From the NCBI GenBank assembly GCA_964472395.1, contig CAYYMM010000003.1:13662-77661 (forward strand): a stretch of DNA of 64,000 bases, in the 5' to 3' direction. This document shows, piece by piece, positions 33,674-58,581 of the stretch (the first letter of the stretch is position 1; each line of letters begins with the position of its first letter). Position numbers and translations under genes: made by a program. The stretch comes from an uncultured bacterium. GTDB lineage: Bacteria; CSSED10-310; CALFER01. Below the pieces are notes generated by a model. That model worked only from the letters and a program-made list of their open reading frames with translations. It was not told where the DNA came from and searched no databases.

Positions 33674-35923
33674 TTATTCCCAACCGAATTCAGCCGAACC
33701 AAACTGCCCGATCAGAATGTGAACGGCGGGATCGACCAGCGCGGCATAAAACCTGATTCCTTGAGCAGCTCCGACATTGGATGGCCATGAAAACGATGGC
33801 AGAACCTCTACATCGGTCACGTCTTCCGGGAATGAAGGATACTGAGCCAGGTAGGAATCGAACTCCTGCGTGAATGTCGGACCCCAGAAGTAACTGCCGA
33901 ACACATCCAGCAACACAAGGAGCGGGAAACCGGTCAGGACATCGCCGGTGTTGTTGCAGAAGTGTGCCGTGCAGGTGAATATGTCGCCGGCATGGAAGAC
34001 TGATTGCGACAGATCCAGCGTGACACCCATCTGATCGCAGATGTCGGGATTGGAATGACGGTACACGAAGGTTTCGACCGTCACTTCGCCATGACCGCCT
34101 CCGAAGATGGTGGTGCACTTCTGCGCGGAATCATAAACCATCGCATGTCCGTAATACGGAGCGGCTCGTCCACCTTTAGGCTCGATCAGATACCAATCAT
34201 ACCCGTCCCATTCCCAAGTTTCATCGAAACCGGGTTCCAGGTTTTGAACGCCGCCGTGCATGACAACACGACAACGACGTTGATCAAATGTTAACCTCAG
34301 TTCCTTTCTTCGTGCAGGATTGGTCGTGGCCGGTTCGATCCGCGTCCAGTCGACTCCATCGTATTCCCAAGTCTTGTCGTAGTATCCGTTCTCTGCGCAC
34401 CCTCCGAATAGAACCGCGACGCCTCGACAGCTGTCGAATGCCATTCCAAAGCCCCAGAGCCCCGGTGGATGATGATCCGGAAACACCTGATACCATGTGC
34501 TCCCATCATACTCCCATGTCTCGTCCTCCCACTCCTGATAGGGGGGATCGTTATAGTCGGCAGATACTCCTCCGAACAACATGAGCCTGCCTCGGATGGA
34601 ATCATAGACCATTGTAGCACTGGATCTCGGACCGGGAACGACGGGAGGTGTCAGCTCGTTCCATGTCTGATCTCGAAACACCCACATTTTATCATTGAAA
34701 TAGGCGGGGCCGTCCCATTTCCTTCCGCCGTACAAAACGATCCCATCGTGATCGGCAAAATAGGCCATACAATGACGCGAAACCTGCCCGGGATTGGGTG
34801 ACAGATTGTAACAGGACCACGTTTGTCCATCCCATAGATACGTATCGGTTGACATGCATGAGGATTCAACTCCTCCGTATAGCACAGTTGTTTGTGATGA
34901 GGGATCGTATTCCATGTTGTGTCCGCCGAGATCAGGCGGATAATAGGGGTCTGGCGTTACATAGGTCCAGTCCACTCCGTCGTAGAACCAAGTGTCACCA
35001 AACAATTCTGGAGTGTGTGATCCACCGAACAGCATTAGTTGCCGTGATCCGGCATCCCATGTCGCTGCAAAACCTGATCGACCAGATGGTTTATGTGGTG
35101 GGTTCATTTCGTGCCATTGAACACCGTCGAATTCCCACGTGTCATCATAATTTCCGTTGCCGCTGAATAGAACAATCACAGAACGGTCCGGATCGTAAAC
35201 AATACGTTGCACTATCCGTACGGGTGGTCGAGGAGGACTTACCTCCGGATTTTCCCACTGCGAACCATCCCAGTACCATAACTCCAATTTCCCATTAAAG
35301 TCTAACAGAACTACCACCTTCTCGATATCGGGATTATAGATCATCCCAGAAATAAACATCGCCGGAGGCCAAGGATTCGATTTCGGAATTTGATGCCATT
35401 CATCCTGATCCCATTCCCAAAGGTCGTCGAGTGCATCCTCTGAAGTCCCCCCGAAAACACAGATTACATCTCGATTACTGTCATAAGCCAAACTGTAATA
35501 TGTCCACTTCGAAGGAAGGAAATCGCTCTCGTCGATCAAAGACCAATCAGAGTAAGTCCATTCCCAAATTTGAAACAAACTATCCGGATATCTACTACCG
35601 AGCAGAAGAATTCGATTATGCATGGAATCGAACAATAAAGCTGGTTCTCCCCAAAAAACATCAGGAATGTGTTCTCTCAATCGAAAATTCCATCTAGTTC
35701 CATCCCATTCCCACGTATCACTAAGATGGCTTCCGGAGTGTCCTCCAAAAAGCAGCACTGTGCCTGTCTCAGGGTTATAGCATATGCTGGAACCGCTTCG
35801 TGGAGTCAACGGCTTCCCGATCTGCACCCATTCCATCGAGGAGGAGATTACATGGTCCGGATGTGCAAAGCACAAACATGAAAGCAAGATGATTAAACCA
35901 GTATTGGTTTTTACACTGCTCAT
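33674..35923 (-). CDS. Secreted Kelch/galactose-oxidase-like beta-propeller repeat protein, paralog 1, with conserved ~120-aa C-terminal domain
   Basis: GAGGAGG RBS then MSSVKTNTGLIILLSCLCFA signal peptide. About 11 Kelch-like blades (LLFGG..., WEWDG/WEYDG). C-terminal block CDQMGVTLDL...FGWE. Confidence 0.8.
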   Translation of the reverse strand: MSSVKTNTGLIILLSCLCFAHPDHVISSSMEWVQIGKPLTPRSGSSICYNPETGTVLLFGGHSGSHLSDTWEWDGTRWNFRLREHIPDVFWGEPALLFDSMHNRILLLGSRYPDSLFQIWEWTYSDWSLIDESDFLPSKWTYYSLAYDSNRDVICVFGGTSEDALDDLWEWDQDEWHQIPKSNPWPPAMFISGMIYNPDIEKVVVLLDFNGKLELWYWDGSQWENPEVSPPRPPVRIVQRIVYDPDRSVIVLFSGNGNYDDTWEFDGVQWHEMNPPHKPSGRSGFAATWDAGSRQLMLFGGSHTPELFGDTWFYDGVDWTYVTPDPYYPPDLGGHNMEYDPSSQTTVLYGGVESSCMSTDTYLWDGQTWSCYNLSPNPGQVSRHCMAYFADHDGIVLYGGRKWDGPAYFNDKMWVFRDQTWNELTPPVVPGPRSSATMVYDSIRGRLMLFGGVSADYNDPPYQEWEDETWEYDGSTWYQVFPDHHPPGLWGFGMAFDSCRGVAVLFGGCAENGYYDKTWEYDGVDWTRIEPATTNPARRKELRLTFDQRRCRVVMHGGVQNLEPGFDETWEWDGYDWYLIEPKGGRAAPYYGHAMVYDSAQKCTTIFGGGHGEVTVETFVYRHSNPDICDQMGVTLDLSQSVFHAGDIFTCTAHFCNNTGDVLTGFPLLVLLDVFGSYFWGPTFTQEFDSYLAQYPSFPEDVTDVEVLPSFSWPSNVGAAQGIRFYAALVDPAVHILIGQFGSAEFGWE

Positions 35924-36037
35924 CCCGAACCTCCTCTCTGCTATAGAGAATAACCCCAACATTTAGTCAGATCAAATCAGAACATGAATGCCGACTGGGA
36001 AAAAAGCACGGGCACGGTGACCTCCCGTCCGAACCAT

Positions 36038-36097: not shown

Positions 36098-37291
36098 ATG
36101 ATCAATCGAGATATATCCAAAGAATTGATTCGATCCGCCACGGAGTATCCCGTGGTGACCATTCTCGGACCGCGCCAGTCGGGCAAGACCACCCTGACCC
36201 GAATGACGTTCCCCAATAAGCCCTATTTTTCTCTTGAGGATCCTGATGTCCGGATGGCGGCCGAGGCCGACCCGCGGGGCTTTCTTGCACAAATGGAGAA
36301 CGGCGGTATTTTGGACGAGGTGCAACGCCTCCCGATTCTGCTTTCCTATATCCAGGGGATGGTCGACAAAACCACGCAACGCGGTCGTTTCATCCTGACT
36401 GGAAGCCATCAACCGCAGCTCCATGAGGCTATCAGCCAGTCGTTGGCGGGCCGCACGGCCATCTTGGTTCTATGGCCGTTTTCCCTTCGTGAGATTCGCC
36501 AGTACGATTCGGTCCGAGACCCCTTCGATTTAATCCATCAGGGCTTTTTCCCCAGGCTTCACGAGGAGAATCTGGAAGCGCGCCGGTTTTTCAACGGCTA
36601 CCTGCAGACCTACGTTGAGAGGGATGTCCGCGCCTTGATTCAGTTGCGTGATTTATCGCTGTTTCAGAAATTTCTCACCCTTTTGGCCGGACGGGTGGGA
36701 CATATCGTCAATCTCGCTTCGCTTGGCAATGATGTCGGCGCTTCCGGAACGACGATCAGAAACTGGCTATCCGTTCTGAAGGCATCCTATGTTGTGTTTG
36801 AACTTCCCCCGTTTTTCGAGAATGTTCATAAACGTGTGATCAAGTCGCCAAAAATCTATTTCACCGACGTTGGCCTCGCCGCGTTTCTACTCGGCATCCA
36901 TACATCGGAGCACGTTTCACGTGACCCTTTGCGCGGAAATCTTTATGAGAACCTCATCATCGCCGAAATCGTGAAAAGCGCATTGAACCGTGGAATCAGA
37001 CCTGAGATCTATTTCTTCCGTGATTCCCACGGCAACGAGATCGATCTGCTGGTCAAGGAAAAAGGTGTGCTCACGCCGGTTGAGATCAAGTCTGCTGCGA
37101 CATTTACCACGGATTATCTCCGGCAAATCGAAATGTTTCGAACACTGGGCATCCGGCGTGTTGCGCCTGGTGCGATCCTTTATAACGGCGAGCAAACATT
37201 CAATGTGCGAGGCATCCGTGTCATCAATCCATTCCAGGTGGAAGACATCTGGCAGACCTTGACCGAATTCCCTGAACAAGAAACCACATGA
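36098..37291 (+). CDS. AAA-family ATPase with DUF4143 C-terminal domain
   Basis: Walker A GPRQSGKTT. Architecture typical of AAA_14 + DUF4143 ATP-binding proteins, which are often in mobile or defence neighbourhoods. Confidence 0.7.
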   Translation: MINRDISKELIRSATEYPVVTILGPRQSGKTTLTRMTFPNKPYFSLEDPDVRMAAEADPRGFLAQMENGGILDEVQRLPILLSYIQGMVDKTTQRGRFILTGSHQPQLHEAISQSLAGRTAILVLWPFSLREIRQYDSVRDPFDLIHQGFFPRLHEENLEARRFFNGYLQTYVERDVRALIQLRDLSLFQKFLTLLAGRVGHIVNLASLGNDVGASGTTIRNWLSVLKASYVVFELPPFFENVHKRVIKSPKIYFTDVGLAAFLLGIHTSEHVSRDPLRGNLYENLIIAEIVKSALNRGIRPEIYFFRDSHGNEIDLLVKEKGVLTPVEIKSAATFTTDYLRQIEMFRTLGIRRVAPGAILYNGEQTFNVRGIRVINPFQVEDIWQTLTEFPEQETT

Positions 37292-37421: not shown

Positions 37422-39686
37422 TTATTCCCACCCGAACTCAACCATATCCAGCTGACCGATCAGAATGTGAACAGCAGGATCGACCAGCGCGGCATAGAAC
37501 CTGATTCCTTGAGCAGCTCCGACATTGGAGGGCCAGGAGAATGACGGGAGCACCTCCACATCGGTGATCCCTTCCGGAAATGAAGGATACCGGGCCAGAT
37601 AGGAATCGAACTCCGGAGTGAAGGTCGGACCCCAGAAGTAACTCCCAAATACATCCAGCAACACGAGGAGTGGGTAGCCGGTCAGAACATCGCCGGTGTT
37701 GTTGCAGATGTGCGCCGTGCAGGTGAACGTGTCACCGGCATGAAAGAGTGATTGCGACAGATCCAAGGTCACACCCATCTGATCGCAGATGTCGGGATTG
37801 GAATGACGGTACACGAAGGTTTCGACGGTGATTCCTTGCTGTCCGCCGCCATAGATCATTGAGCATTTCCTGGCTGAATCATAGATCATGGCGGTTGAAT
37901 GATAGGGAGCTGCGCGTCCACCCGTGGGCTCGATCAGATACCAGTCATACCCATCCCATTCCCATGTTTCATCGAAACCGGGCTCCAGGTTTTGAACACC
38001 GCCATGCATGACAACTCGGCATCGGTGTTGATCGAATGTGAATCCAAGGCTCTTACGTCGTGCAGGATTTGTTGTGGCCGGTTCGATCCGGGTCCAGTCG
38101 ACTCCATCGTATTCCCAGGTCTTGTCATAGTATCCGTTCTCAGCGCACCCTCCGAACAGAACCGTGACGCCTCGACAGCTGTCGAATGCCATTCCAAAGC
38201 CCCAGAGCCCTGGAGGATGATGATCCGGATACACCTGATACCAGGTTGTCCCATTATACTCCCACGTCTCGTCTTCCCACTCCTGCTCATAATAATAAGG
38301 TGGCTCGTAATAGAATGCAGACACACCTCCAAACAAGACGAGTCGTCCCCGAATGGAATCATAGACCATAGCAGCATTGGATCTCGGACCTGGAACGGCG
38401 GGAGGTGTCAGCTCATTCCAAGTCTGATCTCGGAAGACCCACATCCTATCAGAGGATAAGTCTGGCCCCTCCTGAGCATAACCACCATATAGAACGACAC
38501 CATTGAGAGAAGTCATATAAGCCATACAATGTGACCGAATCAAACCTGGAGTGACTGGCAAGTTGATTCCTGTCCAGAGTTGACTATCCCAAATAAATGT
38601 CTCGGTTGACATATATGAGGATTCAACTCCTCCGTATAGCACAGTTGTTTGCGCTAAGGGATCATATGCCATGTTGTGTCCACCAAGATCAGGCGGATAG
38701 TAGGGGTCCGGTGCTACAGACGTCCAGTCCACGCCATTATAAAACCAAGTGTCTCCGAAGTTTTCCCCTGCAACATTTCCTCCTCCGAAAAGCATGACTC
38801 GATTCGTTCGAGCATCCCATGTTGCTGAGTAATTTGATCGAGCGGAGGGTTTGTGCGGTGGGTTTATCTCGTTCCATTGAACACCGTCGAATTCCCACGT
38901 GTCATCATAGTTGCTTTCTCCGCTGAACAAAACAATTACCGAGCGTTCCGGATCGTAAACAATATTCTCCGCCCACCGTACGGGTGGTCGAGGAGGACTC
39001 ACCTCCGGATTTTCCCACTCCGAACCATCCCAATTCCAAAACTCAAATATTCCATTGTATTCTAACAGAACCACCACCTTCTGGATATCAGAATTGTAAA
39101 TCATCCCCGTACCAATCTTATCTGGAGGCCAGGGATTCGATCTCGGAATCCGATGCCATTCCTCCTGATCCCATTCCCAAAGGTCAGGGTGCTCAAACAA
39201 TGTATATCCATCAAACACGCAGATTACATTTCGATGACTATCATACGCAAAACTGTAGTATGAGCAGTCTTCAGGAAACGAGCTATTCTCATCGATCAGT
39301 GACCAGTCCGTACCAGTCCATTCCCAGATCTGGAACACGCTGTCAGATATTCGTCTTCCGAACAGTAAAATGCGATTGTTCAGTGTGTCGTAAACCATGG
39401 AAGCATTTCCCCAGAGTTGGTTCGGACTATGCTCCGTCAAACGAAAATTCCATTTTACTCCGTCCCATTCCCAGGTATCAGTAAGTTCGGATCCCGTATT
39501 TCTTCCGCCAAAAAGCAATACTGTGTTTGACTCAGGATTATAGCAGATCTCTAAACCACTTCGTGGAGTCAGCGGCTTCCCGATCTGCACCCATTCCATC
39601 GAGGAGGAGATTACATGGTCCGGAAGTGCAAAGCACAAACATGAAAGCAAGATGATCCATCCAAGTATGTTCTTGACCGTACTCAT
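37422..39686 (-). CDS. Secreted Kelch-like beta-propeller repeat protein, paralog 2, with conserved C-terminal domain
   Basis: GAGGAGA RBS then MSTVKNILGWIILLSCLCFA. Same architecture as paralog 1. Long nucleotide blocks identical to paralog 3. Confidence 0.8.
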   Translation of the reverse strand: MSTVKNILGWIILLSCLCFALPDHVISSSMEWVQIGKPLTPRSGLEICYNPESNTVLLFGGRNTGSELTDTWEWDGVKWNFRLTEHSPNQLWGNASMVYDTLNNRILLFGRRISDSVFQIWEWTGTDWSLIDENSSFPEDCSYYSFAYDSHRNVICVFDGYTLFEHPDLWEWDQEEWHRIPRSNPWPPDKIGTGMIYNSDIQKVVVLLEYNGIFEFWNWDGSEWENPEVSPPRPPVRWAENIVYDPERSVIVLFSGESNYDDTWEFDGVQWNEINPPHKPSARSNYSATWDARTNRVMLFGGGNVAGENFGDTWFYNGVDWTSVAPDPYYPPDLGGHNMAYDPLAQTTVLYGGVESSYMSTETFIWDSQLWTGINLPVTPGLIRSHCMAYMTSLNGVVLYGGYAQEGPDLSSDRMWVFRDQTWNELTPPAVPGPRSNAAMVYDSIRGRLVLFGGVSAFYYEPPYYYEQEWEDETWEYNGTTWYQVYPDHHPPGLWGFGMAFDSCRGVTVLFGGCAENGYYDKTWEYDGVDWTRIEPATTNPARRKSLGFTFDQHRCRVVMHGGVQNLEPGFDETWEWDGYDWYLIEPTGGRAAPYHSTAMIYDSARKCSMIYGGGQQGITVETFVYRHSNPDICDQMGVTLDLSQSLFHAGDTFTCTAHICNNTGDVLTGYPLLVLLDVFGSYFWGPTFTPEFDSYLARYPSFPEGITDVEVLPSFSWPSNVGAAQGIRFYAALVDPAVHILIGQLDMVEFGWE

Positions 39687-40081
39687 CCTGATCTCCTCTC
39701 TGCCATCGAGAATAACCCGATCATTTATGCAGATCAAATCAGAACATGAGATGATCAGACATGCAAGGAAAAGTCATAGGATATGACCTCTACGTTGTTT
39801 TCTATCGGGACTTGACTGAGGATCACGGTCGAACGCATCTCGTAACGCTCTTCGATCACGATGCGTTTCTTTCTGACATGCCGACACGTCGGACACCAGC
39901 CGCGCTGTCGAATCTGGTGGCCACGTAGAATCGGAATTACTTACCAACCGGGGAGGAAGCGGTCGTCTATTCCTGATCGAATTCTATGTGTTGTTTTCAG
40001 GTGCTCGCGAACCCGGAATCACTGCTCGCATTTTACCGGAATTGAAAGTGCTCGCGGCCGGAATATGCACGAAAAGAGAGA

Positions 40082-41147: not shown

Positions 41148-43394
41148 TTATTCCCACCCGAACTCAACCATATCCAACTGCCCGATCAGAATGTGAACGG
41201 CGGGATCGACCAGTGCGGCATAAAACCTGATTCCTTGAGCAGCTCCGACATTGGATGGCCAGGAGAATGACGGGAGCACCTCCACATCGGTGATCCCTTC
41301 CGGAAATGAAGGATACCGGGCCAGATAGGAATCGAACTCCGGAGTGAAGGTCGGACCCCAGAAGTAACTCCCAAATACATCCAGCAACACGAGGAGTGGG
41401 TAGCCGGTCAGAACATCGCCGGTGTTGTTGCAGATGTGCGCCGTGCAGGTGAACGTGTCACCGGCATGAAAGAGTGATTGCGACAGATCCAAGGTCACAC
41501 CCATCTGATCGCAGATGTCGGGATTGGAATGACGGTACACGAAGGTTTCGACCGTCACTTCGCCATGACCGCCTCCGAAGATGGTGGTGCACTTCTGCGC
41601 GGAATCATAAACCATCGCATGTCCGTAATACGGAGCGGCTCGTCCACCATTCGGCTCGATCAGATACCAGTCATACCCGTCCCATTCCCATGTTTCATCG
41701 AAACCGGGCTTCAGGTTTTGAACACCGCCATGCATGACAACACGACAACGACGGTGATCAAATGCTAACCTCAGATCCTTCCTTCGTGCAGGGTTGGTTG
41801 TGGCCGGTTCGATCCGGGTCCAGTCGACTCCAGTGTACTCCCAGGTCTTGTCATAGTATCCGTTTTCAGCACATCCTCCGAACAGAACCGTGACGCCTCG
41901 ACAACTGTCAAAAGCCATCCCAAAGCCCCAGAGTCCCGGAGGATGATGATCCGGAAACACCTGATACCATGTGCTCCCATCGTACTCCCACGTCTCGTCT
42001 TCCCACTCCTGATAGGGGGGATCGTTATAGTCGGCAGACACGCCTCCGAACAGCACGAGCTTCCCTCGGATGGAATCATAGGCCATCTCAGCGCCAGCTC
42101 TCGGACCGGGAACGACGGGAGGTGTCAGCTCGTTCCATGTCTGATTGCGGAACACCCACATTTTATCATTGAAATAGGCGGGGCCGTCCCATTTCCTTCC
42201 GCCATACAATACGATCCCATCGTGATCGGCAATGTAAGCCATACAATGAACGGAAATCTGACCGGGATTGGGTGACAAACTGTAACCAAACCACGTTTGC
42301 CCATCCCACAGATATGTCTCGGTTGACATGTATGAGGATTCAACTCCTCCGTATAGCACAGTTATTTGTGATGAGGGATCGTATGCCATGTTGTGTCCGC
42401 CGAGATCAGGCGGATAATAGGGGTCTGGCGTTACATAGGTCCAGTCCACTCCGTCGTAGAACCAGGTATCTCCGAATTTCTCCCCTGCATCATTCCCTCC
42501 ACCGAAGATCATGACTCGATTCGTTCGAGCATCCCACGTCGATGCGTAACCTGATCGAGCGGAGGGTTTGTGGGGTGGATCGACCTCGTTCCATCGCGTG
42601 CCGTTGAATTCCCAAGTTTCTTCACTCCAACTCTGACCACCATACATAACCATAGAGGATCGAATCGGATCGAATTCTATTCTCGAACCGCTTCGTTCAG
42701 TCGGATGCGGACCAGATATCTCCGGTTTCTCCCAAACAGAGCCATCCCAATACCAGGGGTCTATCTGTCCGTTGTAATTATCAAAGGCAATCACTCTATG
42801 GATCTCTGAGTTATACGCCAAACCGGCTAATGATAATCCTTGTGGCCAAGGGGTCGATTTCGGTATCTGATGCCATTCGCTTTGATCCCACTCCCAAAGT
42901 TCATATCTGGAAGTGTCTGTATGCCCTCCGAACAAACAGATGACATCACGCTCTTCGTCATATACCGACCGAAAGTAAACCCATCTCAAAGGGAGCAAAT
43001 CGCTCTCGTCGATAAGTGTCCAGTCATTATCTGCCAATTGCCAGATTTGAAATTGTTGCCCGGGATCGACATATCCAGTTAACAGTAACCTATTATTCAA
43101 GGAATCATACAGTAACGCTGGTAGTCCGTAGAAATCTTTGGGCGTGTGAGGTGTCGAGATAAAATTCCACCGCACACCATCCCATTCCCATGTTTCAATG
43201 TCTTCAACGCCTACAGAGTATCCACCGAATAGAAACACTGAGTCGGTTGCTGGATTATAGCAAATGCTGGAACCATATCGTGTAATCAACGGCTTTCCGA
43301 TCTGCACCCATTCCATTGATGATGAGAAAGTACTCTCCGGTATCGACACACACATCCATATCAGCAAAATGACGGGTCCTGCATTCGGCTTCAC
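41148..43394 (-). CDS. Secreted Kelch-like beta-propeller repeat protein, paralog 3 (mosaic of paralogs 1 and 2), with conserved C-terminal domain
   Basis: GTG start with signal peptide KPNAGPVILLIWMCVSIPESTFS. 5' coding blocks nearly identical at nucleotide level to paralog 2 (41246..41556 vs 37520..37830) and to paralog 1 (41521..41645 vs 34046..34170). Confidence 0.8.
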   Translation of the reverse strand: MKPNAGPVILLIWMCVSIPESTFSSSMEWVQIGKPLITRYGSSICYNPATDSVFLFGGYSVGVEDIETWEWDGVRWNFISTPHTPKDFYGLPALLYDSLNNRLLLTGYVDPGQQFQIWQLADNDWTLIDESDLLPLRWVYFRSVYDEERDVICLFGGHTDTSRYELWEWDQSEWHQIPKSTPWPQGLSLAGLAYNSEIHRVIAFDNYNGQIDPWYWDGSVWEKPEISGPHPTERSGSRIEFDPIRSSMVMYGGQSWSEETWEFNGTRWNEVDPPHKPSARSGYASTWDARTNRVMIFGGGNDAGEKFGDTWFYDGVDWTYVTPDPYYPPDLGGHNMAYDPSSQITVLYGGVESSYMSTETYLWDGQTWFGYSLSPNPGQISVHCMAYIADHDGIVLYGGRKWDGPAYFNDKMWVFRNQTWNELTPPVVPGPRAGAEMAYDSIRGKLVLFGGVSADYNDPPYQEWEDETWEYDGSTWYQVFPDHHPPGLWGFGMAFDSCRGVTVLFGGCAENGYYDKTWEYTGVDWTRIEPATTNPARRKDLRLAFDHRRCRVVMHGGVQNLKPGFDETWEWDGYDWYLIEPNGGRAAPYYGHAMVYDSAQKCTTIFGGGHGEVTVETFVYRHSNPDICDQMGVTLDLSQSLFHAGDTFTCTAHICNNTGDVLTGYPLLVLLDVFGSYFWGPTFTPEFDSYLARYPSFPEGITDVEVLPSFSWPSNVGAAQGIRFYAALVDPAVHILIGQLDMVEFGWE

Positions 43395-47786: not shown

Positions 47787-49979
47787 ATGGACAGGTTGTC
47801 TGATTCAATCCTCAGCAAAGCGATCTTTTCGATCCTGCTTCTCTGTTGCGGCATACCACGATTCAACACAGCGCTCGCACAATCCTCCCGCGATCACATG
47901 ATCTATTCCGATGCACTCGGAGCAGACTGGGCGAGTTGGTCCTGGAGCGTGATGATCAACGAATCGAATCCGAATCCCGTTCACTCCGGAACATATTCGA
48001 TGTCGGTTCGATACACCGGCGGATGGGGAGGCGTCTTTCTGCATACCGACACGTATCTCGCGGGTTCTGAATACGAATCGCTGTCATTCTGGATTCACGG
48101 GGGCTCGACGGGCGGGCAGGTCCTGCGCGTCGGGATCTACTCCGGAGGAGAACCGACCGAGTATGTCGGCATCACCGCTCCGGCGAACACATGGGAGCAT
48201 CACACGATCCCGATGACCGATCTGGGCAACCCGGAGCAGATCACCGAGATCGTCTGGCAAAGCACCTCGGTGTCGGCACAGGCCATGTTCTACATGGATG
48301 ACATCCTTTTGATCTCGGATCCGACTCCTCCAACTCCGCCGGTTCTTTCGATCGATACTGAGTCGATCACGCATCCCATCGACCCGAACATCTACGGCAT
48401 GAGTTTCGCCGATGAAGATCTCGCGGAGGAACTCGATCTGCCCGTCCGCCGTTTCGGCGGGAACTCGACGACGCGCTACAGTTACATCCACGATACAAGC
48501 AATCGCGCATCGGACTGGTATTTCGAGAACATCCCCGAGGACAACGCCCATCCGGAAGACCTGCCCGACGGATCGTTGACGGATCGATTCATCGAGCAGG
48601 ATGACCGGACGGGGACGGACACGTTGCTGACGATCCCGATGATCGGCTGGACCCCCAAGTCGCGCGCATGGAACTGGGGATTCAGTGTGGCGAAGTATGG
48701 ACCTCAGGAATCGGTGGATCCGTGGCAACCCGATGCGGGAAACGGCGTGGACACCGACGGCGATCCCATCACGATAAATGATCCGCTCGACACCAGCACA
48801 TCGATCGGTCCGGACTTCGTCCAGGGCTGGATGGCCCATCTGATCGGAAAGTACGGGTCCGCCTCGGGGGGAGGGGTTCGCTTTTATAATCTTGACAATG
48901 AACCCATGCTGTGGAATTCGACGCACCGGGATGTCCATCCCGACCCGGCCGGTTATGACGAAATGCGGGACCGTACCGTTGCGTATGCGTCCGCGATCAA
49001 GGCCATGGATCCCGCTGCTCTGACCCTCGGCCCGGTCGTCTGGGGCTGGACGGCGTACTTTTACTCCGCTCTGGATGCCGCGCCCGGAGGGGCATGGTGG
49101 CTCAATCCGCTCGACCGCCTGGCCCACGACAACATCCCGTTCATCGAGTGGTATCTCCAGCAGATGCAGGAATACGAGGACACGTTCGATGTCCGGATAC
49201 TGGACTATGTTGACGTGCACTGCTATCCGCAGCAGAACGGCGTTGCTCTTGGGGAAGCCGGTTCAGCCTCGACGCGGGCTCTCCGGCTCCGATCCACCCG
49301 ACAACTCTGGGATCCGACCTATGTCGACGAGAGCTGGATCGGAGAACCGGTCCGGCTGATCCCCCGGATGAAAGAATGGATCGAAGCGAACTACCCCGGA
49401 ACAAAATCGGCGGTCACGGAATACAACTGGGGCGGCCACGAACACATCAATGGCGCGCTCGCCCAGGCGGACGTTCTCGGGATATTCGGTCGAGAGGGAC
49501 TGGACCTGGCGTGTCTCTGGGGTCCGCCCGGGATCGATCAGCCCTGTGCCTTCGCATTCCGGATGTTCCGCAACTATGACGGATCACACGGCCGCTTCGG
49601 GGATCGATCGATTGCGGCGGTCAGTTCGGATCAGGCGAAACTGTCTGTTTATGGAGCGATCCGTGCACTGGATCAAGCCGTGACGATCCTGGTCGTCAAC
49701 AAATCCGGCACGGCCCTGAACAGCGACGTCGAGTTTGTGCATGACCCCGGTGTGGATACAGCGGAAGTCTATCGCTACAGCGTATCGAATCTGACCGCGA
49801 TTATCCGGGAATCCGACCAGCCCCTCTCTCCGCAAGGCTTCACCGCGCTCTTCCCCGCCGACTCAATCACCCTGTTCGTCATCCCCGGCGCCTTCGAACC
49901 AGTCCCCCTCACCGGGCCTGTTTCGGGCGTGCTCCTGCTCCTCGTCATCTCTCTCATCATCGTTCGAAAGCGTCACTGA
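47787..49979 (+). CDS. Secreted glycoside hydrolase, GH44-like (clan GH-A), with N-terminal CBM-like domain and C-terminal TM/sorting-like tail
   Basis: Signal peptide. RFGGNSTTRYSY...DWYFEN GH44-like signature. NLDNEPMLWN (acid/base NEP) and VTEYNWGG (nucleophile). C-terminus EPVPLTGPVSGVLLLLVISLIIVRKRH. Confidence 0.6.
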   Translation: MDRLSDSILSKAIFSILLLCCGIPRFNTALAQSSRDHMIYSDALGADWASWSWSVMINESNPNPVHSGTYSMSVRYTGGWGGVFLHTDTYLAGSEYESLSFWIHGGSTGGQVLRVGIYSGGEPTEYVGITAPANTWEHHTIPMTDLGNPEQITEIVWQSTSVSAQAMFYMDDILLISDPTPPTPPVLSIDTESITHPIDPNIYGMSFADEDLAEELDLPVRRFGGNSTTRYSYIHDTSNRASDWYFENIPEDNAHPEDLPDGSLTDRFIEQDDRTGTDTLLTIPMIGWTPKSRAWNWGFSVAKYGPQESVDPWQPDAGNGVDTDGDPITINDPLDTSTSIGPDFVQGWMAHLIGKYGSASGGGVRFYNLDNEPMLWNSTHRDVHPDPAGYDEMRDRTVAYASAIKAMDPAALTLGPVVWGWTAYFYSALDAAPGGAWWLNPLDRLAHDNIPFIEWYLQQMQEYEDTFDVRILDYVDVHCYPQQNGVALGEAGSASTRALRLRSTRQLWDPTYVDESWIGEPVRLIPRMKEWIEANYPGTKSAVTEYNWGGHEHINGALAQADVLGIFGREGLDLACLWGPPGIDQPCAFAFRMFRNYDGSHGRFGDRSIAAVSSDQAKLSVYGAIRALDQAVTILVVNKSGTALNSDVEFVHDPGVDTAEVYRYSVSNLTAIIRESDQPLSPQGFTALFPADSITLFVIPGAFEPVPLTGPVSGVLLLLVISLIIVRKRH

Positions 49980-50495: not shown

Positions 50496-50658
50496 TGTCG
50501 TCATGGCCGATCTGAAAAAGCTGGACGAGCAATTGCGCATGTGAAATCCCGGCTCATCGATGGCGACTCATCGGACACGAAACGGAGAGTGAAATTCGAA
50601 CTTCCACGGACTTCTGAGACCCGGAAAGACGATGGAACCTGAATGTGAGGTGATCGAC

Positions 50659-51255
50659 ATGGCGCGACGAACTGATGGTTGCCGATCCGTTGTCCTGATG
50701 CTCCCGATGGCATTCCTTGTCGTTCTTTGCGGTTGCTGTGAGTTACTGGGGGACTGCGATGAGCCCTCGGCGACGGCAACGGCAGCACCTCCTGCGACGG
50801 CGACACCTGCGCCATCTGCTTCACCCGAGCCGACCGCGAGCGGGACGCCCGTTCCGACCGAAACGCCTTCAGTGACCCGGATGTTTCGAGGCACGAGCTA
50901 TCGGGAACCGGGAGGCGCTAGGATCGGAGAATGCGCATTCAGTGTCTCACCGAAAGGCTTGGTATCGGGATATGTCACCATGTGGTGGGCCTGTTCGAAC
51001 TCAGACGGAGCACAATGGGAAACGACATTTTCTCATGAATTCTCAACGGAACTGAACGATCAGAATCGATTCTCCTGGGAGTTCGTGGACGAAGGTGGTC
51101 TGGGTTATGCCCATTATCGTCGGGTTTATACGGTCGATGGGTGGGTGGGTGAAACGGATGCCGACGGTGAGTGGGCTGCATCATCCACGGCTTCGGATCA
51201 CTATATGCAGAGCAGTTGCACAGGAAATGGCAAATGGGATGCGGCCATTGAATAA
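50659..51255 (+). CDS. Putative lipoprotein with Pro/Thr/Ala-rich linker
   Basis: GAGGTG RBS. MARRTDGCRSVVLMLPMAFLVVLCGCC signal with lipobox, then a PATATPAPSASPEPTASGTPVPTETP linker. No known domain. Confidence 0.45.
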   Translation: MARRTDGCRSVVLMLPMAFLVVLCGCCELLGDCDEPSATATAAPPATATPAPSASPEPTASGTPVPTETPSVTRMFRGTSYREPGGARIGECAFSVSPKGLVSGYVTMWWACSNSDGAQWETTFSHEFSTELNDQNRFSWEFVDEGGLGYAHYRRVYTVDGWVGETDADGEWAASSTASDHYMQSSCTGNGKWDAAIE

Positions 51256-51281: not shown

Positions 51282-52784
51282 ATGTTTTTTTTAAGATCTG
51301 TCGTATTGAGCATGCTGGCGCTTCTCGGCGCAACACTCGTTTCAGCCAATCCCATTCAATGGAAAACACCGGTCGTCATTCCCGAGGATCCGACACATGG
51401 GATGGAATTGAAAGGCGGTCCCGACGGCCTGTTCCACATGATTCTCTGTCAGGATTCGACGCACAGTTTCAGTTACGGCAGGCTGGAGGAGACCGGATTT
51501 TACATGCAACTGATCGAATCATACGCGACATCGGGTACGATGTACTGCGCATTGAATTTCTGGGGAAACATGCCGGTCGCCGGCATGAGGTACGAAGCGG
51601 AGCAGAACATGGCTTACTCGATTCGAACCGGAGCGTGGACATCACCCTCTGAAATCCCTCAGACTCTGGATTCGCATCGAATCAAACTCGCGGTCGAAAA
51701 CACGGGAGTGATGCATGTCGCATTCGTGCAGGAAGATGATGCCGGCGGTAGCCATCTGATGTATTCCTACACCGACGGCCCGGACTGGGAACTCGAACAT
51801 GTGTTTCTGCTCTCCGATCATTCGCTCGTGACCCGGATCGACATGGAACTGGATTCCACAAATACGCCTCACTTCGCATGGTTTGACGCAAACTTCAACT
51901 ACATCGGATATGCCGTCCGGACCGGTTTTGCTGAATTCGATGCCGACATTGCGGCGCAGGGAGTCGATGCCTGCCGATGGATCGATCTTGAGTTGATGGC
52001 TCCCGACATTCCTGTGATCGGATTTCTGCAGGGAAGCTCGACCGAATCGGCCACGCTGCACTATACATTCAAATTCGGATCCTCGTTTTATGAAGACGAG
52101 ATCCTCGGAAACGTCGGAATCACATCAGCCGATATGGCTGTTCCTCGTGAAGACACCATCACAACCTCACGACTGTACTTCTTCGCCGCACTGCCAACAG
52201 GAATTCACACGCTCCGCCCGGTCGTCGGCGGATGGGACATGTCCCGCATCGCCGCACTGTACGACGTCAGCAGCAACGTATTGCTGGATGCCGACTGGAA
52301 CAGCGCATCGAATTCTGTTGGACTGCTCATCAGCGACTTCACGGAAGATGAACTCTACTTCATTGAAGGAACGTCGGTCACACCGACTCCGACCGCTCAA
52401 CCGCCGACACCCACTCCGGGGCCGTGCGACCAATTGGGCTGTGACGTGACCATGCCGTCGACCTCATTCCATCCGGGAGATCTCTGCAATTGCCTCGTGA
52501 CGATCTGCAACCCCGGCCCCAAAACTTACATTAACGTTCCGTTGTTCGTCATACTGGACGTTTACGGTGAGTATTTCTTCGCGCCTTCATTCACCGATCT
52601 CGATCATTACACCTACGACTCCATCGCGCCCGGCACTCACCTCCGAACGGTCATACCCGATTTCTCCTGGCCGGAAGGCGTTGGATCGGCAAGTGGGCTG
52701 TTATTTTACGCCGGAATGACCAATGCCGAGATGACCGAGTTGCTCGGCGAGTATGACTCGTTTACGTTCGGGTATTCCGATTGA
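51282..52784 (+). CDS. Secreted hypothetical protein carrying the shared ~120-aa C-terminal domain after a Pro/Thr linker
   Basis: Signal peptide MFFLRSVVLSMLALLGATLVSA, TPTPTAQPPTPTPGP linker, then CDQLGCDV...PLFVILDVYGEYFFAPSFT...IPDFSWPEGVGSASGLLFYAG..., homologous to the Kelch paralog C-termini. Confidence 0.6.
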   Translation: MFFLRSVVLSMLALLGATLVSANPIQWKTPVVIPEDPTHGMELKGGPDGLFHMILCQDSTHSFSYGRLEETGFYMQLIESYATSGTMYCALNFWGNMPVAGMRYEAEQNMAYSIRTGAWTSPSEIPQTLDSHRIKLAVENTGVMHVAFVQEDDAGGSHLMYSYTDGPDWELEHVFLLSDHSLVTRIDMELDSTNTPHFAWFDANFNYIGYAVRTGFAEFDADIAAQGVDACRWIDLELMAPDIPVIGFLQGSSTESATLHYTFKFGSSFYEDEILGNVGITSADMAVPREDTITTSRLYFFAALPTGIHTLRPVVGGWDMSRIAALYDVSSNVLLDADWNSASNSVGLLISDFTEDELYFIEGTSVTPTPTAQPPTPTPGPCDQLGCDVTMPSTSFHPGDLCNCLVTICNPGPKTYINVPLFVILDVYGEYFFAPSFTDLDHYTYDSIAPGTHLRTVIPDFSWPEGVGSASGLLFYAGMTNAEMTELLGEYDSFTFGYSD

Positions 52785-52799
52785 GATAGCAGCAGTCGA

Positions 52800-53582
52800 T
52801 CAGATTGCATGCAGGGGAGTTTCACGGGATTCCGGCTGATCGGGAATGGGTTTATCCGAATCCTGACCGGGTTCGATCCGGCAGTCATCGATCACGACAT
52901 CCACGATGAGTTTGGTGGGATCCATCAGATTTTCCAGCTCCAGGAGGAACTCATCCGTTTCATCCGCCCGTCGTGTTCCGACATGCCGGGAATCTGAGAT
53001 CCGGCCTGTGACGCAGATCGCATCGTCGATGTTCAGCCTCTCCAGCAACCCTTCACGTCCTTTCGGAACATTGGCCTGCACGAGAATCTGATCGGAATGC
53101 TTCGTTGCGCCGGACACGGCCACCCTCACACGATGCGTGACCCGTCCGGCTTCGACATTCCGGATGGCCCCGCAGACCCTGACGTAGCGTCCCTCGATTT
53201 CATCCTTCCACCGTTTCTTCCTCCGGATGTCATTCCCATCCGCCATGATTTCCACTGCAGTTTTCCATCTCGAAGTCAGATCATTGGCTTGTCCGGAATC
53301 GGATTGCGGTGAGTCCGCCAGTGTCATGGGAGTGGGTTTTGGAACGCCATCTTTACATTCACCGACCGTGATCTGTCTGACCTGCATCATCGGGAGGCGG
53401 TGAGGAGTTGCGTCATTCCGGTATGAATAGACCACATACCGTTGATCGTAGATGTCCTCATATTCGACTCGGACACCTGCGATCACCCGCCCGTCCTTCA
53501 GGTGGATGTCGACGCAATCCTGAGCGAGGGTCATCGGGATAACCAGGATCAACCAGATCACAAACAGCAATCTCTTCAGCAT
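52800..53582 (-). CDS. Secreted hypothetical protein
   Basis: Signal peptide MLKRLLFVIWLILVIPMTLA. No recognisable domain. Confidence 0.45.
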   Translation of the reverse strand: MLKRLLFVIWLILVIPMTLAQDCVDIHLKDGRVIAGVRVEYEDIYDQRYVVYSYRNDATPHRLPMMQVRQITVGECKDGVPKPTPMTLADSPQSDSGQANDLTSRWKTAVEIMADGNDIRRKKRWKDEIEGRYVRVCGAIRNVEAGRVTHRVRVAVSGATKHSDQILVQANVPKGREGLLERLNIDDAICVTGRISDSRHVGTRRADETDEFLLELENLMDPTKLIVDVVIDDCRIEPGQDSDKPIPDQPESRETPLHAI

Positions 53583-53742
53583 CGCTTCTCCTTTGATCTA
53601 CGTGTGTCATTCGCATTCTCATCCTCATTCGCCGGTTTGTCAATGGACAACATGACTGAACACACCCCTCATGCCGCCAAACTTTCATTGAGAACACACG
53701 TAATTCCAAATGAATGGTCTGTCATCCTTCCGGGAGGTGTCT

Positions 53743-56700
53743 ATGAAATCAATGCAGTGTTTGATCATTGGATCGTTCTTCTGTCTGTCATCGCTGGCTT
53801 CAGCCGGCATGCACCACGAAACGATCAGTTTCATTGCCGATTCACGCCCTGTTCTAGCTTCGGATCAGATCCACGTTGCGGGGACTTCTCACACACTGGC
53901 TGTTTCGGGCGCACCCGCGTTACCCATGATGGTTCGGCATTTCAATTTTCCGATCGGGAGTCGATTGGTGGACGCACAAATTGAGGGGATCACAACGAAT
54001 CGCATGAGACTCGATCGACCACTCCCGGTCCTGCCGCCAAAACCGATTGTTTCCAACCCTCATCAGCATTTGCAGGTTCCTCCCCTGGTCAGACCCGACG
54101 TGATGTACCCGGGCGACTGGTATGCGATCGAAACGCGTGGCGGACTTGACCCGGACACTCTGGCGCCGGTTCTTTCCGTTACGGTTCGAATATACCCGGT
54201 ACGTGTGACCGATCGGGCAGCGGAATATCTCGAGTCATTCACCTTGAACCTGTCTGTCGACCGCGTCGATGCGCAGGCCACCCGTGATACAGCCGGAATG
54301 CTGATCATTGCTCCTCAGGCGTTCCTGGATGTGATGGGACCATTCATCGCCCATAAAAACTCGCTTGGAATCACCACAATGACGCGATCCGCTGAAGATA
54401 TTCTGGACAACGGCACACCGGGATTCGATTTTCAGGAACAGATCAAGAAGGCTGTCTATGAGGCCTATACCGCATCATCCATTCGCTACGTGCTGCTCGT
54501 CGGAGACGCATCGCTGATCCCTGTCCGCTATACCTTCCATATGGATTTCGGAGGACAGGACGGATGGACAAACACGCCGAGCGATTTGTACTACGCCGAC
54601 CTGCTCGATGCGTCCGGCGAGTATTGTTCGTGGGATTTCGATCAGGACGGTTTATACGGCGAGTTCAACGGCGGGAACGCGGATCAATGCGACCTGCTTC
54701 CGGACGTGCTGCTCGGACGTATTCCGGCTCAGACCACGACGGAACTCCAGGCGGTCCTCGACAAACTGATCGCATACGAGTCGCTCGATGGGTCTCAATC
54801 CTGGCTGAACCGAATCGTTCTTCTCGGAGCGGATACATTCACCGCCGAGGAACACAACGAGCATTCCGGGGTTCCTGAAGGTGAAGCGCTCTGCGAGCGG
54901 CTCAACACGGATCATCTGAGTGATTATGCCACCACGCGTCTTTATCAGACCGATACATACTCGCGTGACGGAGAATTGACGGCGGCAGCGATCACGCAGG
55001 CGATTCAGGCAGGGGCATGCATCGTGAACTATGCCAATCACGGAAACATCAATGTCTGGGGATGGGGAGGCCGGACATACTCCACGGCCAATGTGGAGAG
55101 TCTGGACAATCAGGAAAAACTGCCGATCGTATACTCCTTCGCGTGCCTGACAGCCGCTTTCGATACGGAAAATCCGGAGAATCCCGGATTTGGAATCGTC
55201 GACCGCAGTCTGGGAGAGGCGTTCCTGCTCAAAGCCCCGGGTGGAGCTGCCGGCTTTTTCGGAGCCACACGATCCGCCTTTGGTGGTGGTTACGGCTACG
55301 GCGATCATCTCGGAGCAATGGGCTATCTGGATTGGCAGTACTTCAAAAAAATCGGGGAAGGACAGACTGCGCAGGGCCGGTTGTATCTCGAGACACTTAC
55401 CGAGTTGATTCAGAATATCGGTGTCACGGGAACCGAGGAGTTCATCACGGCACTCGAGTACATCTACTTTGGAGATCCGTCTCTGTGCATCTCCGGAACA
55501 CCGGTCGGACCGAACTTCGATCTGCAGTACAAAGGCATAAATGACAGCTCCGGAGGCAATGACAACAGGTGCGCGGAACCCGGGGAAACCGTCGAGTTGA
55601 TTCATGAGCTTTCCAACGATGGATCCGCCGCATCAGATGTCTCGGCTGTTCTCGCCATTGAGGATCCTGACGTGACAATCATCAACGACACACTTACCAT
55701 TCCTTCGGCGCCACATGGCCACCGGGCGATTCTGGATCCGGGTTTTCAGATTGCGATCCACTCGGATGCCTTGAATCACTCCGTTTTCGGCTCCATTACA
55801 CTCTCGACCGGGACTCACCGGAGTACATTTCCTGTCATATTCAACATCGGAGTCTCCGCGTTTCTCACCGCTGACGAGATGTTTGTCAAAGCGGATCCGA
55901 ACAATGACAACTATGCCAACCCGGGCGAAAGCATCCAGTTTTCACCCGATTTTCATAACATCGGATGCACCGACGCGGCCTTGTTTTCTGCGAGCGTTCA
56001 GATCTCGGATCCCTTCGTTCTGGATTACGGCGCTTGCAGCAGCGGTGCGTTACCCCTGATCGAACCGGGTCGTTCCGCATGTCCGGGCGGTCTTTTCTGG
56101 GCTGAACTCGATCCCGTCACTCCCGATCAGCATCGCATCGATTGCCGGATCGAAATCGATGGTCCTCACGGATTCCATCACGAGCTGATCCTGCCGTTAT
56201 TCGTGAATGATTGTACGATGCCGGTTCTGAGTCAGTTCCGGGTCAGTCCCGAAAATCCGGATCCCGGAGACTCCATCTCCGTTACAGTAAAGGCAGTGGA
56301 TGGCTATGGAGTAGAATCGATCAGCGCCGATTTTACGAGTTACGGATCGCAGAGCATCACCGGAGTCACGATGTCTGATGATGGCCTTCACGGAGATGCG
56401 GAAGCCGGGGATGGCATCTATGGATGTTCACTGACCCTGCCAGACAAACTGATTTACTATCGCGTTGATATCGAGGCGACTGACGGAGCCGGTCATTCCG
56501 GAACGCGCACGGGAATTGGAGGCGTGTCGACCATCGCTTTCGAGTCGGATGATCCGATTCTGATCGTCAGTGGAGCCGAAGATGACCTCTACCTGGGTCT
56601 CTACGCCCAGGCATTGAGCGATGCAGGATTCCGGTATGATGTTTGGTCCTATCTCCGGGGTGTCCCCTCGATGGATGTTCTGAACCGGTATCGAAACGGC

Positions 56701-58581
56701 GCCGTGATCTGGTTCTTTGCGCATGAATATCCGATGTTGCAGGAACCGGAGAGAACCGTAATCGAAGCCTATATCAATGACGGCGGCAAACTGCTGATCA
56801 CCGAACAGGATATCGGTTGGGCTCTTGTCGAAAAGGGCACTTCAGAATCGATGAGATGGTATCACGATGTGTTGAAGGCCGCTTACATAACCGATGGGGT
56901 GGATCAACGGATCGTGGATGGGATTGCGTCCGATCCTGTCAGCGATGGATTGTCATTTTCGATCGAATCGGGAAGCGGAGCCCAGAATCAGGATTACCCC
57001 AGTCTGATCGCTCCAGTGGATGATGCGACGGCCTGCTTTGTTTACAGGGATTATCCGGGACCTGAATCCGGTGTGGCCGGGGTTCGCGCTGATCATACCG
57101 GGGGCGGAAAACATGTGTATCTCGCGTTCGGGTTTGAAGGAATTGACTCGCAACAGAATCGGAGCGACGTCATGGATTCCATCATGACATGGTTCGGCAT
57201 TCCGAAAACCGGCCGGTCATGCCCGTGGAACCAGTCACCGGGATGGTGGATAGGGCCGGAAACACAATCTCCCAACGCCCACACCTACTCGGTTTACTGC
57301 CCGGCGGATCGCATGGTCTATTCGATCGGCGGAGTGAGTGCGAACAACATACTCGACCCGTCCATCTATTACATCGATCCGGAGATGATGACATCAGGAG
57401 ACACCGGTGTCGACCTCGAAACACCCCGGATTCTTCATGCTCAGGCATGTCTGCATGATGGAACGGGATACAAGATCTACATCGCCGGAGGGATGGACAC
57501 CCAGATCCCGATCTACTCCGTTGAGGTGTTCGATCCGATGACACGGACAATCGAGACATTGACATCGGATCCGATGCCGCCCGATTGCGCGGGTATTCCG
57601 GGGACCTACGTTTCCGCGGATAACAAGTTGTACGTAATCGGAGCATGGCAATGGTTGACGTTTCTGACCGGAACGACATGGCAGTTCGACCCGCTCGCTC
57701 CGGCAGGACAGCGCTGGAGCACCCTTCCGGCGTCTCTCAACGTGCTTCGATACTCGGGAGCCGCTGCCGCGCTCGATGGAAAAATCTACGTCATCGGCGG
57801 CTATTCCGCTGAGGAGGATGGATCCGGGAATGTGACTGAACATCTTCACCAGACCGTCGAAGTCCTCGATCTTGGAAACGTGTCCGGAGGCTGGAACGAT
57901 ACCGCTGTCGCCGATATTCCGGAACCGCTGTTGTTCGGAAGCGCATGTGGAGTCCCGAGCGGAGCGAATTCGCAACTTGCAGGATCCATCGTCGTTTCTC
58001 GTGGCTGGCCGATCGGAGGTCATGATCTGACGTATATCTATCATCCCGACAGCGACACATGGGAAGAGTTTTACGCAACGCAGGAGACGCGATTGAACCG
58101 AGGCCATCTGGCATATATTCCGACCTCCCGAGGTCCCGAACTGTGGTTGATCGGTGGGCATTTCGAGACGATTTACCAGAACACGGAAATCCTGCGCCTC
58201 GGTTTCAATCCGAATGGGCCGTACATCGGAATCCGCACGAACGAATCCGGCATCTGCTCAGGGATTCCTCTTCGAATCGAACTCGATCTCCATGGAAGCC
58301 CCTCCGAAGCTCCGATCGACTGCTATATCGCCCTCGAAGCCTATGGACTGTTTTACTTCTTGGTGCCGGATCCTTCGTTCCCCACATTCGTGTCCGCACC
58401 TGAACCGCTCTTCGCACATGCATCGATTCCCCGAGATTTCAGTTACTCGGGCCCGATTCTCGAAATCCCTCTCCCCGCGGATCTCGGACCTTTGAACGGT
58501 TGCTTCTACGCCGCTACGATCCGGAGTGAGTCCGGTCAACTCGACGGCGGGCTGTCATGGACTGACTTTCGGACACTCTAA
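53743..58581 (+). CDS. Giant secreted C25-family (gingipain-like) cysteine peptidase with Ig-like/CARDB-like domains, a Kelch beta-propeller and the shared C-terminal domain
   Basis: GGGAGGTG RBS then MKSMQCLIIGSFFCLSSLASA. C25 propeptide/catalytic region (YVLLVGDASLIPV). Catalytic His NYANHGN and Cys VYSFACLTAAFD. Kelch blades (KIYIAGG, KLYVIGA, KIYVIGGY). C-terminal domain homologous to the other four CTDs. Confidence 0.75.
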   Translation: MKSMQCLIIGSFFCLSSLASAGMHHETISFIADSRPVLASDQIHVAGTSHTLAVSGAPALPMMVRHFNFPIGSRLVDAQIEGITTNRMRLDRPLPVLPPKPIVSNPHQHLQVPPLVRPDVMYPGDWYAIETRGGLDPDTLAPVLSVTVRIYPVRVTDRAAEYLESFTLNLSVDRVDAQATRDTAGMLIIAPQAFLDVMGPFIAHKNSLGITTMTRSAEDILDNGTPGFDFQEQIKKAVYEAYTASSIRYVLLVGDASLIPVRYTFHMDFGGQDGWTNTPSDLYYADLLDASGEYCSWDFDQDGLYGEFNGGNADQCDLLPDVLLGRIPAQTTTELQAVLDKLIAYESLDGSQSWLNRIVLLGADTFTAEEHNEHSGVPEGEALCERLNTDHLSDYATTRLYQTDTYSRDGELTAAAITQAIQAGACIVNYANHGNINVWGWGGRTYSTANVESLDNQEKLPIVYSFACLTAAFDTENPENPGFGIVDRSLGEAFLLKAPGGAAGFFGATRSAFGGGYGYGDHLGAMGYLDWQYFKKIGEGQTAQGRLYLETLTELIQNIGVTGTEEFITALEYIYFGDPSLCISGTPVGPNFDLQYKGINDSSGGNDNRCAEPGETVELIHELSNDGSAASDVSAVLAIEDPDVTIINDTLTIPSAPHGHRAILDPGFQIAIHSDALNHSVFGSITLSTGTHRSTFPVIFNIGVSAFLTADEMFVKADPNNDNYANPGESIQFSPDFHNIGCTDAALFSASVQISDPFVLDYGACSSGALPLIEPGRSACPGGLFWAELDPVTPDQHRIDCRIEIDGPHGFHHELILPLFVNDCTMPVLSQFRVSPENPDPGDSISVTVKAVDGYGVESISADFTSYGSQSITGVTMSDDGLHGDAEAGDGIYGCSLTLPDKLIYYRVDIEATDGAGHSGTRTGIGGVSTIAFESDDPILIVSGAEDDLYLGLYAQALSDAGFRYDVWSYLRGVPSMDVLNRYRNGAVIWFFAHEYPMLQEPERTVIEAYINDGGKLLITEQDIGWALVEKGTSESMRWYHDVLKAAYITDGVDQRIVDGIASDPVSDGLSFSIESGSGAQNQDYPSLIAPVDDATACFVYRDYPGPESGVAGVRADHTGGGKHVYLAFGFEGIDSQQNRSDVMDSIMTWFGIPKTGRSCPWNQSPGWWIGPETQSPNAHTYSVYCPADRMVYSIGGVSANNILDPSIYYIDPEMMTSGDTGVDLETPRILHAQACLHDGTGYKIYIAGGMDTQIPIYSVEVFDPMTRTIETLTSDPMPPDCAGIPGTYVSADNKLYVIGAWQWLTFLTGTTWQFDPLAPAGQRWSTLPASLNVLRYSGAAAALDGKIYVIGGYSAEEDGSGNVTEHLHQTVEVLDLGNVSGGWNDTAVADIPEPLLFGSACGVPSGANSQLAGSIVVSRGWPIGGHDLTYIYHPDSDTWEEFYATQETRLNRGHLAYIPTSRGPELWLIGGHFETIYQNTEILRLGFNPNGPYIGIRTNESGICSGIPLRIELDLHGSPSEAPIDCYIALEAYGLFYFLVPDPSFPTFVSAPEPLFAHASIPRDFSYSGPILEIPLPADLGPLNGCFYAATIRSESGQLDGGLSWTDFRTL

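Follow-up and report, generated by a model that had tools for sequence, protein, structure and literature searches.

C-terminal domains have led to secretion machineries before: the type IX secretion system (T9SS) was reached from the C-terminal domain (CTD) of gingipains, and the exosortases from the PEP-CTERM signal. The type A CTD of the T9SS, as found in gingipains, is a single immunoglobulin (Ig)-like beta-sandwich located at the extreme C-terminus of proteins with Sec signals. It is lineage-restricted, occurs in tens of copies per genome, and is appended to diverse large cargo proteins, including C25 peptidases, subtilases, beta-helix proteins and propellers. Here we analyzed a C-terminal domain of approximately 118 residues encoded several times in a 64-kb stretch (hereafter, the window) of contig CAYYMM010000003.1, which derives from an uncultured bacterium of candidate division CSSED10-310. 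This domain is like the type A CTD in all of these respects, as far as the fold can be judged from a structural model, and the T9SS CTD appears to be its nearest functional analogue. However, the new domain fails the test of sequence membership in the T9SS CTD families, is longer and better conserved, and belongs to a phylum that lies outside both the known range of the T9SS and the Fibrobacteres-Chlorobi-Bacteroidetes (FCB) group.

Other described modules resemble the domain in part. The tripartite signals LPXTG, PEP-CTERM and GlyGly-CTERM are likewise C-terminal, multi-copy and lineage-specific, but each combines a short motif with a transmembrane helix and a basic tail, whereas the new domain is folded and soluble and contains no hydrophobic helix. 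Because it has neither a transmembrane helix nor a basic tail, and ends in ...F.FGW.[ED], we do not consider it a signal of the LPXTG/PEP-CTERM type. Dockerins and SLH modules are also conserved terminal modules that follow a Pro/Thr linker in many secreted proteins and presumably have one partner, but dockerins are Ca-binding helical repeats and SLH modules are helical, folds that are unrelated to the all-beta structure predicted here. Given the absence of helices from this prediction and of any Pfam match, the domain is not a dockerin; no cohesin-like scaffold was found.

Word-indexed searches retrieved 199 relatives of the domain, and an exhaustive HMMER search recovered 2168 cluster representatives with E ≤ 1e-3; 1507 of these passed a cutoff of E ≤ 1e-10, and 406 one of E ≤ 1e-30. 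One copy per protein is the rule. We examined the position of 255 complete domains in 254 fetched sequences, and 245 of them (~96%) finished at most three residues from the C-terminus. Similarly, the 72 genomic loci contained 124 copies, 113 of which finished no more than three residues before the stop codon; the reading frames had a median length of 650 amino acids (aa), and about 10 of the 124 copies sat in short frames (frameshifts or relics). Conservation was high: copies were 40–60% identical across the whole phylum, approximately 25 positions were at least 90% conserved across the family, and four Cys residues occurred in 67–89% of the members. The consensus reads C..tGVtI.MPS..F.PGD.CyC.V.VCN......PLFVILDVYG.YFFAPSF..FDyY....PG.T.veVLPeF.WP.GaGSAsGI.WYAAMTDPeiTeLfGemD.FeFGW.e. 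In 111 of 172 longer members, Pro, Thr and Ser accounted for at least 50% of the 40 residues preceding the domain.

Many database entries of approximately 108–115 aa (P0002–P0005, P0074, P0081, P0086 and others) begin at the conserved Met of MPS. We rejected the possibility that these ~109-aa entries are genuine stand-alone proteins and regarded them as truncated gene calls, because they start at this Met, lie mostly on contigs of about 1 kb, and contrast with the median frame length in genomic loci. In addition, in P0122 (440 aa) the second half of the domain is followed by its first half and then by a full terminal copy. This permuted and partial arrangement suggests recombination within the domain or its linkers.

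To compare the family with known models, we scanned Pfam and NCBIfam with 62 isolated domains at E ≤ 1, with 76 full-length members, and with the window proteins at E ≤ 0.1. No model matched the domain in any of the 62 isolated copies or in the 76 full-length members; the models without a match included Por_Secre_tail (TIGR04183/PF18962), CHU_C/type B (TIGR04131/PF13585), FlgD_ig (PF13860), CARDB (PF07705), PPC (PF04151) and the choice-of-anchor families. In the five window proteins considered below, neither a T9SS type A CTD match nor any model covering the domain was found. NCBIfam choice-of-anchor families are named for occurring with alternative C-terminal sorting signals, and two of them matched upstream of the domain: choice_anch_Q in P0090 (residues 2–26) and choice_anch_X in the C25 peptidase of the window (residues 886–909). 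We therefore did not accept the choice_anch_Q match as one to the domain itself. In the literature that we searched, we found no description of the domain and, for the phylum, only a brief genome announcement. The family thus lacks a description in Pfam, NCBIfam and the searched literature.

We modelled the domain with AlphaFold2 from an alignment of 62 sequences, which yielded eight beta strands and no helices (predicted local distance difference test (pLDDT) score, 95.1; predicted template modelling (pTM) score, 0.85). On this basis, the domain is confidently predicted to be an eight-strand Ig-like beta-sandwich. The first matches obtained with Foldseek were RhoGDI, Der p 2, TRAP and CARDB, with template modelling (TM) scores of only about 0.5, and the matches overall were generic Ig-like neighbours, including Ig domains of glycosidases and the PKD domain of an M14 peptidase. 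T9SS CTD structures were present in neither of the two lists of fold matches. A profile search against PDB sequences returned a single result, Tec kinase (E = 0.038), which we judged to be a chance match. The most invariant elements of the domain are an Asn that closes strand 2, APSF..FD.Y, FxWPxGxGSA and the FGW at the C-terminal end. If a simple up-down strand topology is assumed, these elements would share one pole of the sandwich with both termini, and such a pole would be compatible with a surface for recognition in which the free C-terminus takes part.

Every named source record of family members belongs to CSSED10-310. When we scanned one genome per GTDB species, 71 loci were found, all in about 10 metagenome-assembled genomes (MAGs), and the named ones among these were again CSSED10-310. 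The domain occurs in at least 25 copies in the MAG JAFGLW and in at least 28 copies in CALFER, both partially sampled; because JAFGLW contains 2515 genes (PMC8248873), the domain marks at least 1% of them. The phylum has been described as Gram-negative and sister to Acidobacteriota (PMC8248873), and the window encodes a TolC-like outer-membrane efflux protein with MacB and HlyD partners, which fits a diderm host. In such a host, Sec export alone would leave the cargo in the periplasm. According to a crude rule, 103 of 160 testable carriers possessed a Sec-type N-terminus (94 of these 103 without a lipobox), as did all five window proteins.

The passengers of these carriers are mutually unrelated. 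They include Beta_helix, Kelch, NosD and Chlamydia-PMP repeats, subtilases (Peptidase_S8), M1 and C25 peptidases, FG-GAP, BNR and PQQ propellers, Metallophos, CBM96 and Temptin_C, in proteins that reach 2166 aa. Peptidases are a minority of the carriers, and the cargo is mostly not composed of carbohydrate-active enzymes (CAZymes). Some members consist only of a signal peptide, CBM96, a linker and the domain, an arrangement that makes sense if the domain serves as the cell-side attachment. The commonest small carriers (~270 aa; P0012, P0041, P0046, P0097 and about 15 others) comprise a signal peptide, Temptin_C with a CxxCH (haem-c-like) motif, a Pro/Thr linker and the domain.

The original prediction, which was made from the window alone, had proposed that five secreted proteins share this C-terminal domain: three Kelch paralogs, a 500-aa protein and a C25 peptidase. 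We compared a profile built from 246 family members with the window translated in all six frames. This recovered the 500-aa protein and the three Kelch paralogs at E-values of 1e-42 to 1e-51 and at the coordinates that had been proposed (Table 1), and nothing beyond these four copies scored below E = 1; in the C25 peptidase, no more than a probable relic is present, as described below. The motifs that had been listed (CDQ[ML]G, PL[FL]VxLDV[FY]GxYF, FSWPxxVG and FG[WY]) proved to be the most conserved columns of the family, and the view of the domain as a module appended after a linker agreed with the Pro/Thr-rich linkers and the near-constant last position. The expectations of secreted rather than cytoplasmic carriers, of a beta-sandwich fold and of no match to a known sorting-domain family were likewise supported, by the Sec-type signal peptides, the AlphaFold2 model and the family-model scans, respectively. 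The suggested search beyond the window revealed the large family described above.

Table 1. Positions in the window of the domain copies, of the genes that carry them and of other genes mentioned in the text
Feature	Position	Strand	Remarks
Gene of the 500-aa exported protein	51282..52784	+	Signal peptide MFFLRSVVLSMLALLGATLVSA, passenger of ~340 aa, Pro/Thr linker, C-terminal domain
Pro/Thr-rich linker between passenger and domain of the 500-aa protein	52371..52421	+	TPTPTAQPPTPTPGP region
Domain copy of the 500-aa protein	52422..52781	+	Conserved Cys to last residue; HMM E 1.2e-51; AlphaFold2 model with pLDDT 95.1 and 8 strands
Domain copy of Kelch paralog 1	33677..34042	-	Gene 33674..35962; HMM E 2.9e-42; Kelch Pfam matches upstream
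Domain copy of Kelch paralog 2	37425..37790	-	Gene 37422..39737; HMM E 7.9e-45
Domain copy of Kelch paralog 3	41151..41516	-	Gene 41148..43394; HMM E 3.6e-45
Gene of the 1623-aa exported C25 peptidase	53710..58581	+	Peptidase_C25 (residues 197-592), choice-of-anchor X motif, Kelch propeller, degenerate tail
Probable relic domain copy at the C-terminus of the C25 peptidase	58225..58578 (approximate)	+	5.3 bits; hhalign; collinearity with L004 and L019
AAA_14/DUF4143 ATPase gene	36098..37291	+	Between Kelch paralogs 1 and 2
ORF flanking the 500-aa gene	50632..51255	+	No family match
ORF flanking the 500-aa gene	52800..53582	-	No family match
GH44 (EpsB-like) glycoside hydrolase gene	47787..49979	+	Without the domain
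Topoisomerase-RecQ fusion gene	27507..31640	-	Single ORF, 1377 aa

In the 500-aa protein, the C-terminal ~120 residues run from CDQLGC to FTFGYSD, and the passenger matched no Pfam or NCBIfam model. A syntenic locus on CALFER010000076.1 (L002), with approximately 89% nucleotide identity to the window, encodes an ortholog that is 92.6% identical across all 500 residues (passenger, 92.3%; domain, 92.5%). The two flanking open reading frames (ORFs) matched no family; the upstream one, on the same strand, encodes an N-terminus that is hydrophobic and bears a Cys cluster (LCGCC), a stretch rich in Pro/Thr and Pro/Ala, and a Cys/Trp-rich domain.

The three Kelch paralogs form a tandem array with a mosaic pattern of identity. 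Paralogs 2 and 3 share the same protein sequence (100% identity) across their final ~120 aa, and identity between paralogs 1 and 3 is 97–98% in the middle of the gene, while the N-terminal halves of the three are only 37–63% identical, a pattern that suggests gene conversion among the copies. In paralog 1, the domain is fused straight to the propeller without a Pro/Thr linker. Because the paralogs are recent duplicates, their three copies are not independent, and the window accordingly holds two independent versions of the domain, which are 37–39% identical to one another. An ATPase gene of the AAA_14/DUF4143 type lies within the array (Table 1).

The C-terminus of the C25 peptidase was treated separately. 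Its tail was not significant on the scale of the window (E = 7.9 in one search, and unlisted in the scan with the 246-member profile), and no homologues were found in a search with the tail. As a lone pre-specified target, it scored 5.3 bits against the family hidden Markov model (HMM) (E about 1e-3 for one target), and hhalign aligned it to the family with P = 2.3e-4 and a probability of 44%. The region comprising Kelch and tail is collinear with a paralog in L004 that has Kelch, a Pro/Thr linker and a canonical domain, and the tail can be aligned in register (E = 3e-4) to a C25 homologue from L019 whose own copy of the domain is significant. The MPS, CxC..CN, FxWP and FGW motifs are missing from the tail, and a single-sequence AlphaFold model of it was uninformative (pLDDT, 38). 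From these alignments, the tail is probably a degenerate relic copy of the domain.

The parallel that had been drawn with gingipains, which are C25 peptidases with a T9SS CTD, nevertheless holds within the phylum, where L019:14622-18266 encodes Propeptide_C25, Peptidase_C25, a long Pro/Thr linker and a domain copy that scores significantly (independent E-value, 8.5e-19). Against the PorU model, the C25 peptidase of the window scored 86 bits, compared with a model cutoff of 420. In L002, positions 11324..11561 correspond to positions 53749..58224 of the window: approximately 4.3 kb of the C25 gene is absent, and a stretch of about 240 bp and a frameshifted tail remain. Either the C25 gene is dispensable or the MAG assembly collapsed at this position. 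The idea that the adjacent C25 peptidase is a dedicated sortase is weakened, and a role as a universal processing enzyme is unlikely, because L002 keeps only this frameshifted remnant and yet retains the tagged 500-aa neighbour.

These results suggest that the domain is probably an address label common to its carriers, for display at the surface or for anchoring, and a tag for addressing, sorting or anchoring is the general reading that we infer to be best supported. One common partner is indicated because the domain is a single, almost always terminal copy that marks at least 1% of the genes, follows Sec signals and arbitrary cargo, and stays strongly conserved on passengers that are unrelated to one another. 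We tentatively favour, although we hold it with some reserve, the more specific proposal that it is a lineage-specific address tag, that is, an export or attachment signal working like the T9SS CTD; the near-strict terminal position favours such a signal, and the choice-of-anchor modules upstream of the tag agree with it. According to this proposal, the N-terminal Sec signal would bring the precursor to the periplasm, where the folded C-terminal domain, alike in all cargo, would be recognized by one common partner in the envelope. Recognition would then move the passenger across the outer membrane, tether it at the cell surface, or both. Such a role would parallel that of the T9SS CTD in Bacteroidota, with an unrelated sequence family. 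It seems unlikely that the domain is the recognition signal of an undescribed outer-membrane export or surface-attachment pathway independent of the T9SS, in which a tag-bearing C25-family peptidase might process cargo as PorU does. The step that the original prediction had taken toward a distinct secretion or attachment pathway received no direct support. Looking for machinery, we found no gene for a sortase, an exosortase or a T9SS-like component (PorK/L/M/N, Sov/SprA, PorV, PorU) within the window, and none that recurred beside the copies. We clustered 832 ORFs from the 72 loci (124 copies), and no conserved neighbour gene emerged as candidate machinery; the recurring neighbours were all generic (radical SAM proteins, ABC ATPases, Ser/Thr kinases, sulfatases and glycosyltransferases), and a check of the remaining window genes for secretion or sortase components turned up only the TolC/MacB/HlyD efflux set, kinases and similar genes.

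The lack of such genes in these regions weighs against an export or attachment signal, as do two properties of the domain itself. In a few members (P0132, P0146 and P0187), an internal copy is followed by a further Pro/Thr linker and another domain, and the strongly conserved loops fit ligand binding as well as they fit a secretion signal. Together with the architecture based on Pro/Thr linkers, both properties favour a non-covalent anchor that is retained, comparable to dockerins, SLH modules, or lipopolysaccharide- or lipid-binding domains. In that case, the cargo would exit by a general route such as the type II secretion system, the sandwich would bind an envelope glycan, a lipid or a scaffold protein, and the linker would tether the passenger. 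We regard such an anchor as a real, if somewhat doubtful, possibility. A pure binding module has no need of a position within three residues of the C-terminus in nearly all copies, and carriers of up to 2166 aa would still have to cross the outer membrane by a separate route. Moreover, no candidate ligand or scaffold was found, and the structural matches are generic.

Two further explanations fit the range of cargo and the degree of conservation poorly. The domain could be a generic Ig-like or CARDB-like spacer, or a carbohydrate-binding module (CBM), without a sorting or anchoring role and expanded by chance in the phylum. Among the structural matches, CARDB (PDB 3idu/2kl6, PF1109) offers such a precedent, but it shares only 12% identity with the domain and no HMM match links the two. 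CARDB and similar domains are typically internal or tandem, whereas the new domain is single and terminal; its cargo is mostly non-CAZyme, and its conservation far exceeds what maintenance of the fold would need, which makes a spacer or CBM very improbable. We consider it still less probable that the domain is a pro-domain or intramolecular chaperone, which would assist folding or keep an enzyme inactive during export and then be cleaved off. PPC, a C-terminal beta-sandwich on secreted peptidases, would be the model for this role, and the terminal position, the beta-sandwich fold, the presence on subtilases, M1 and C25 peptidases, and the PKD domain of an M14 peptidase among the fold matches all agree with it. 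However, PPC is confined to peptidases and most carriers of the new domain are non-peptidases (Kelch, beta-helix, PMP, CBM96 and Temptin_C proteins). A single chaperone sequence is unlikely to serve such unrelated folds, and neither a PPC nor a PKD model matched.

Two other genes of the window (Table 1) deserve mention. The glycoside hydrolase of family 44 (GH44) is EpsB-like and ends in ...FEPVPLTGPVSGVLLLLVISLIIVRKRH, in which a motif precedes a hydrophobic helix and a basic tail, as in LPXTG or PEP-CTERM signals; no NCBIfam sorting model matched this end. The 1377-aa ORF encodes a type IA topoisomerase (Toprim and Topoisom_bac) fused to a RecQ helicase, whose part comprises DEAD, Helicase_C, RecQ_Zn_bind and HRDC. 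RecQ and Topo III usually occur as two distinct proteins that act as partners, and a natural fusion of the two is unusual.

In conclusion, one unmodelled domain that marks at least 1% of the genes defines the surface and secreted proteome of an uncultured diderm phylum, and the tag provides a handle on the search for the partner by which it is read. Should that partner prove to be a new system for export or attachment, the secretion repertoire of diderm bacteria would grow; if the domain is instead an anchor that binds a ligand, it would represent a new module for surface display. A family model would annotate more than 2000 clusters of 'hypothetical' proteins and would flag the truncated gene calls of approximately 109 aa that contain only the tag.
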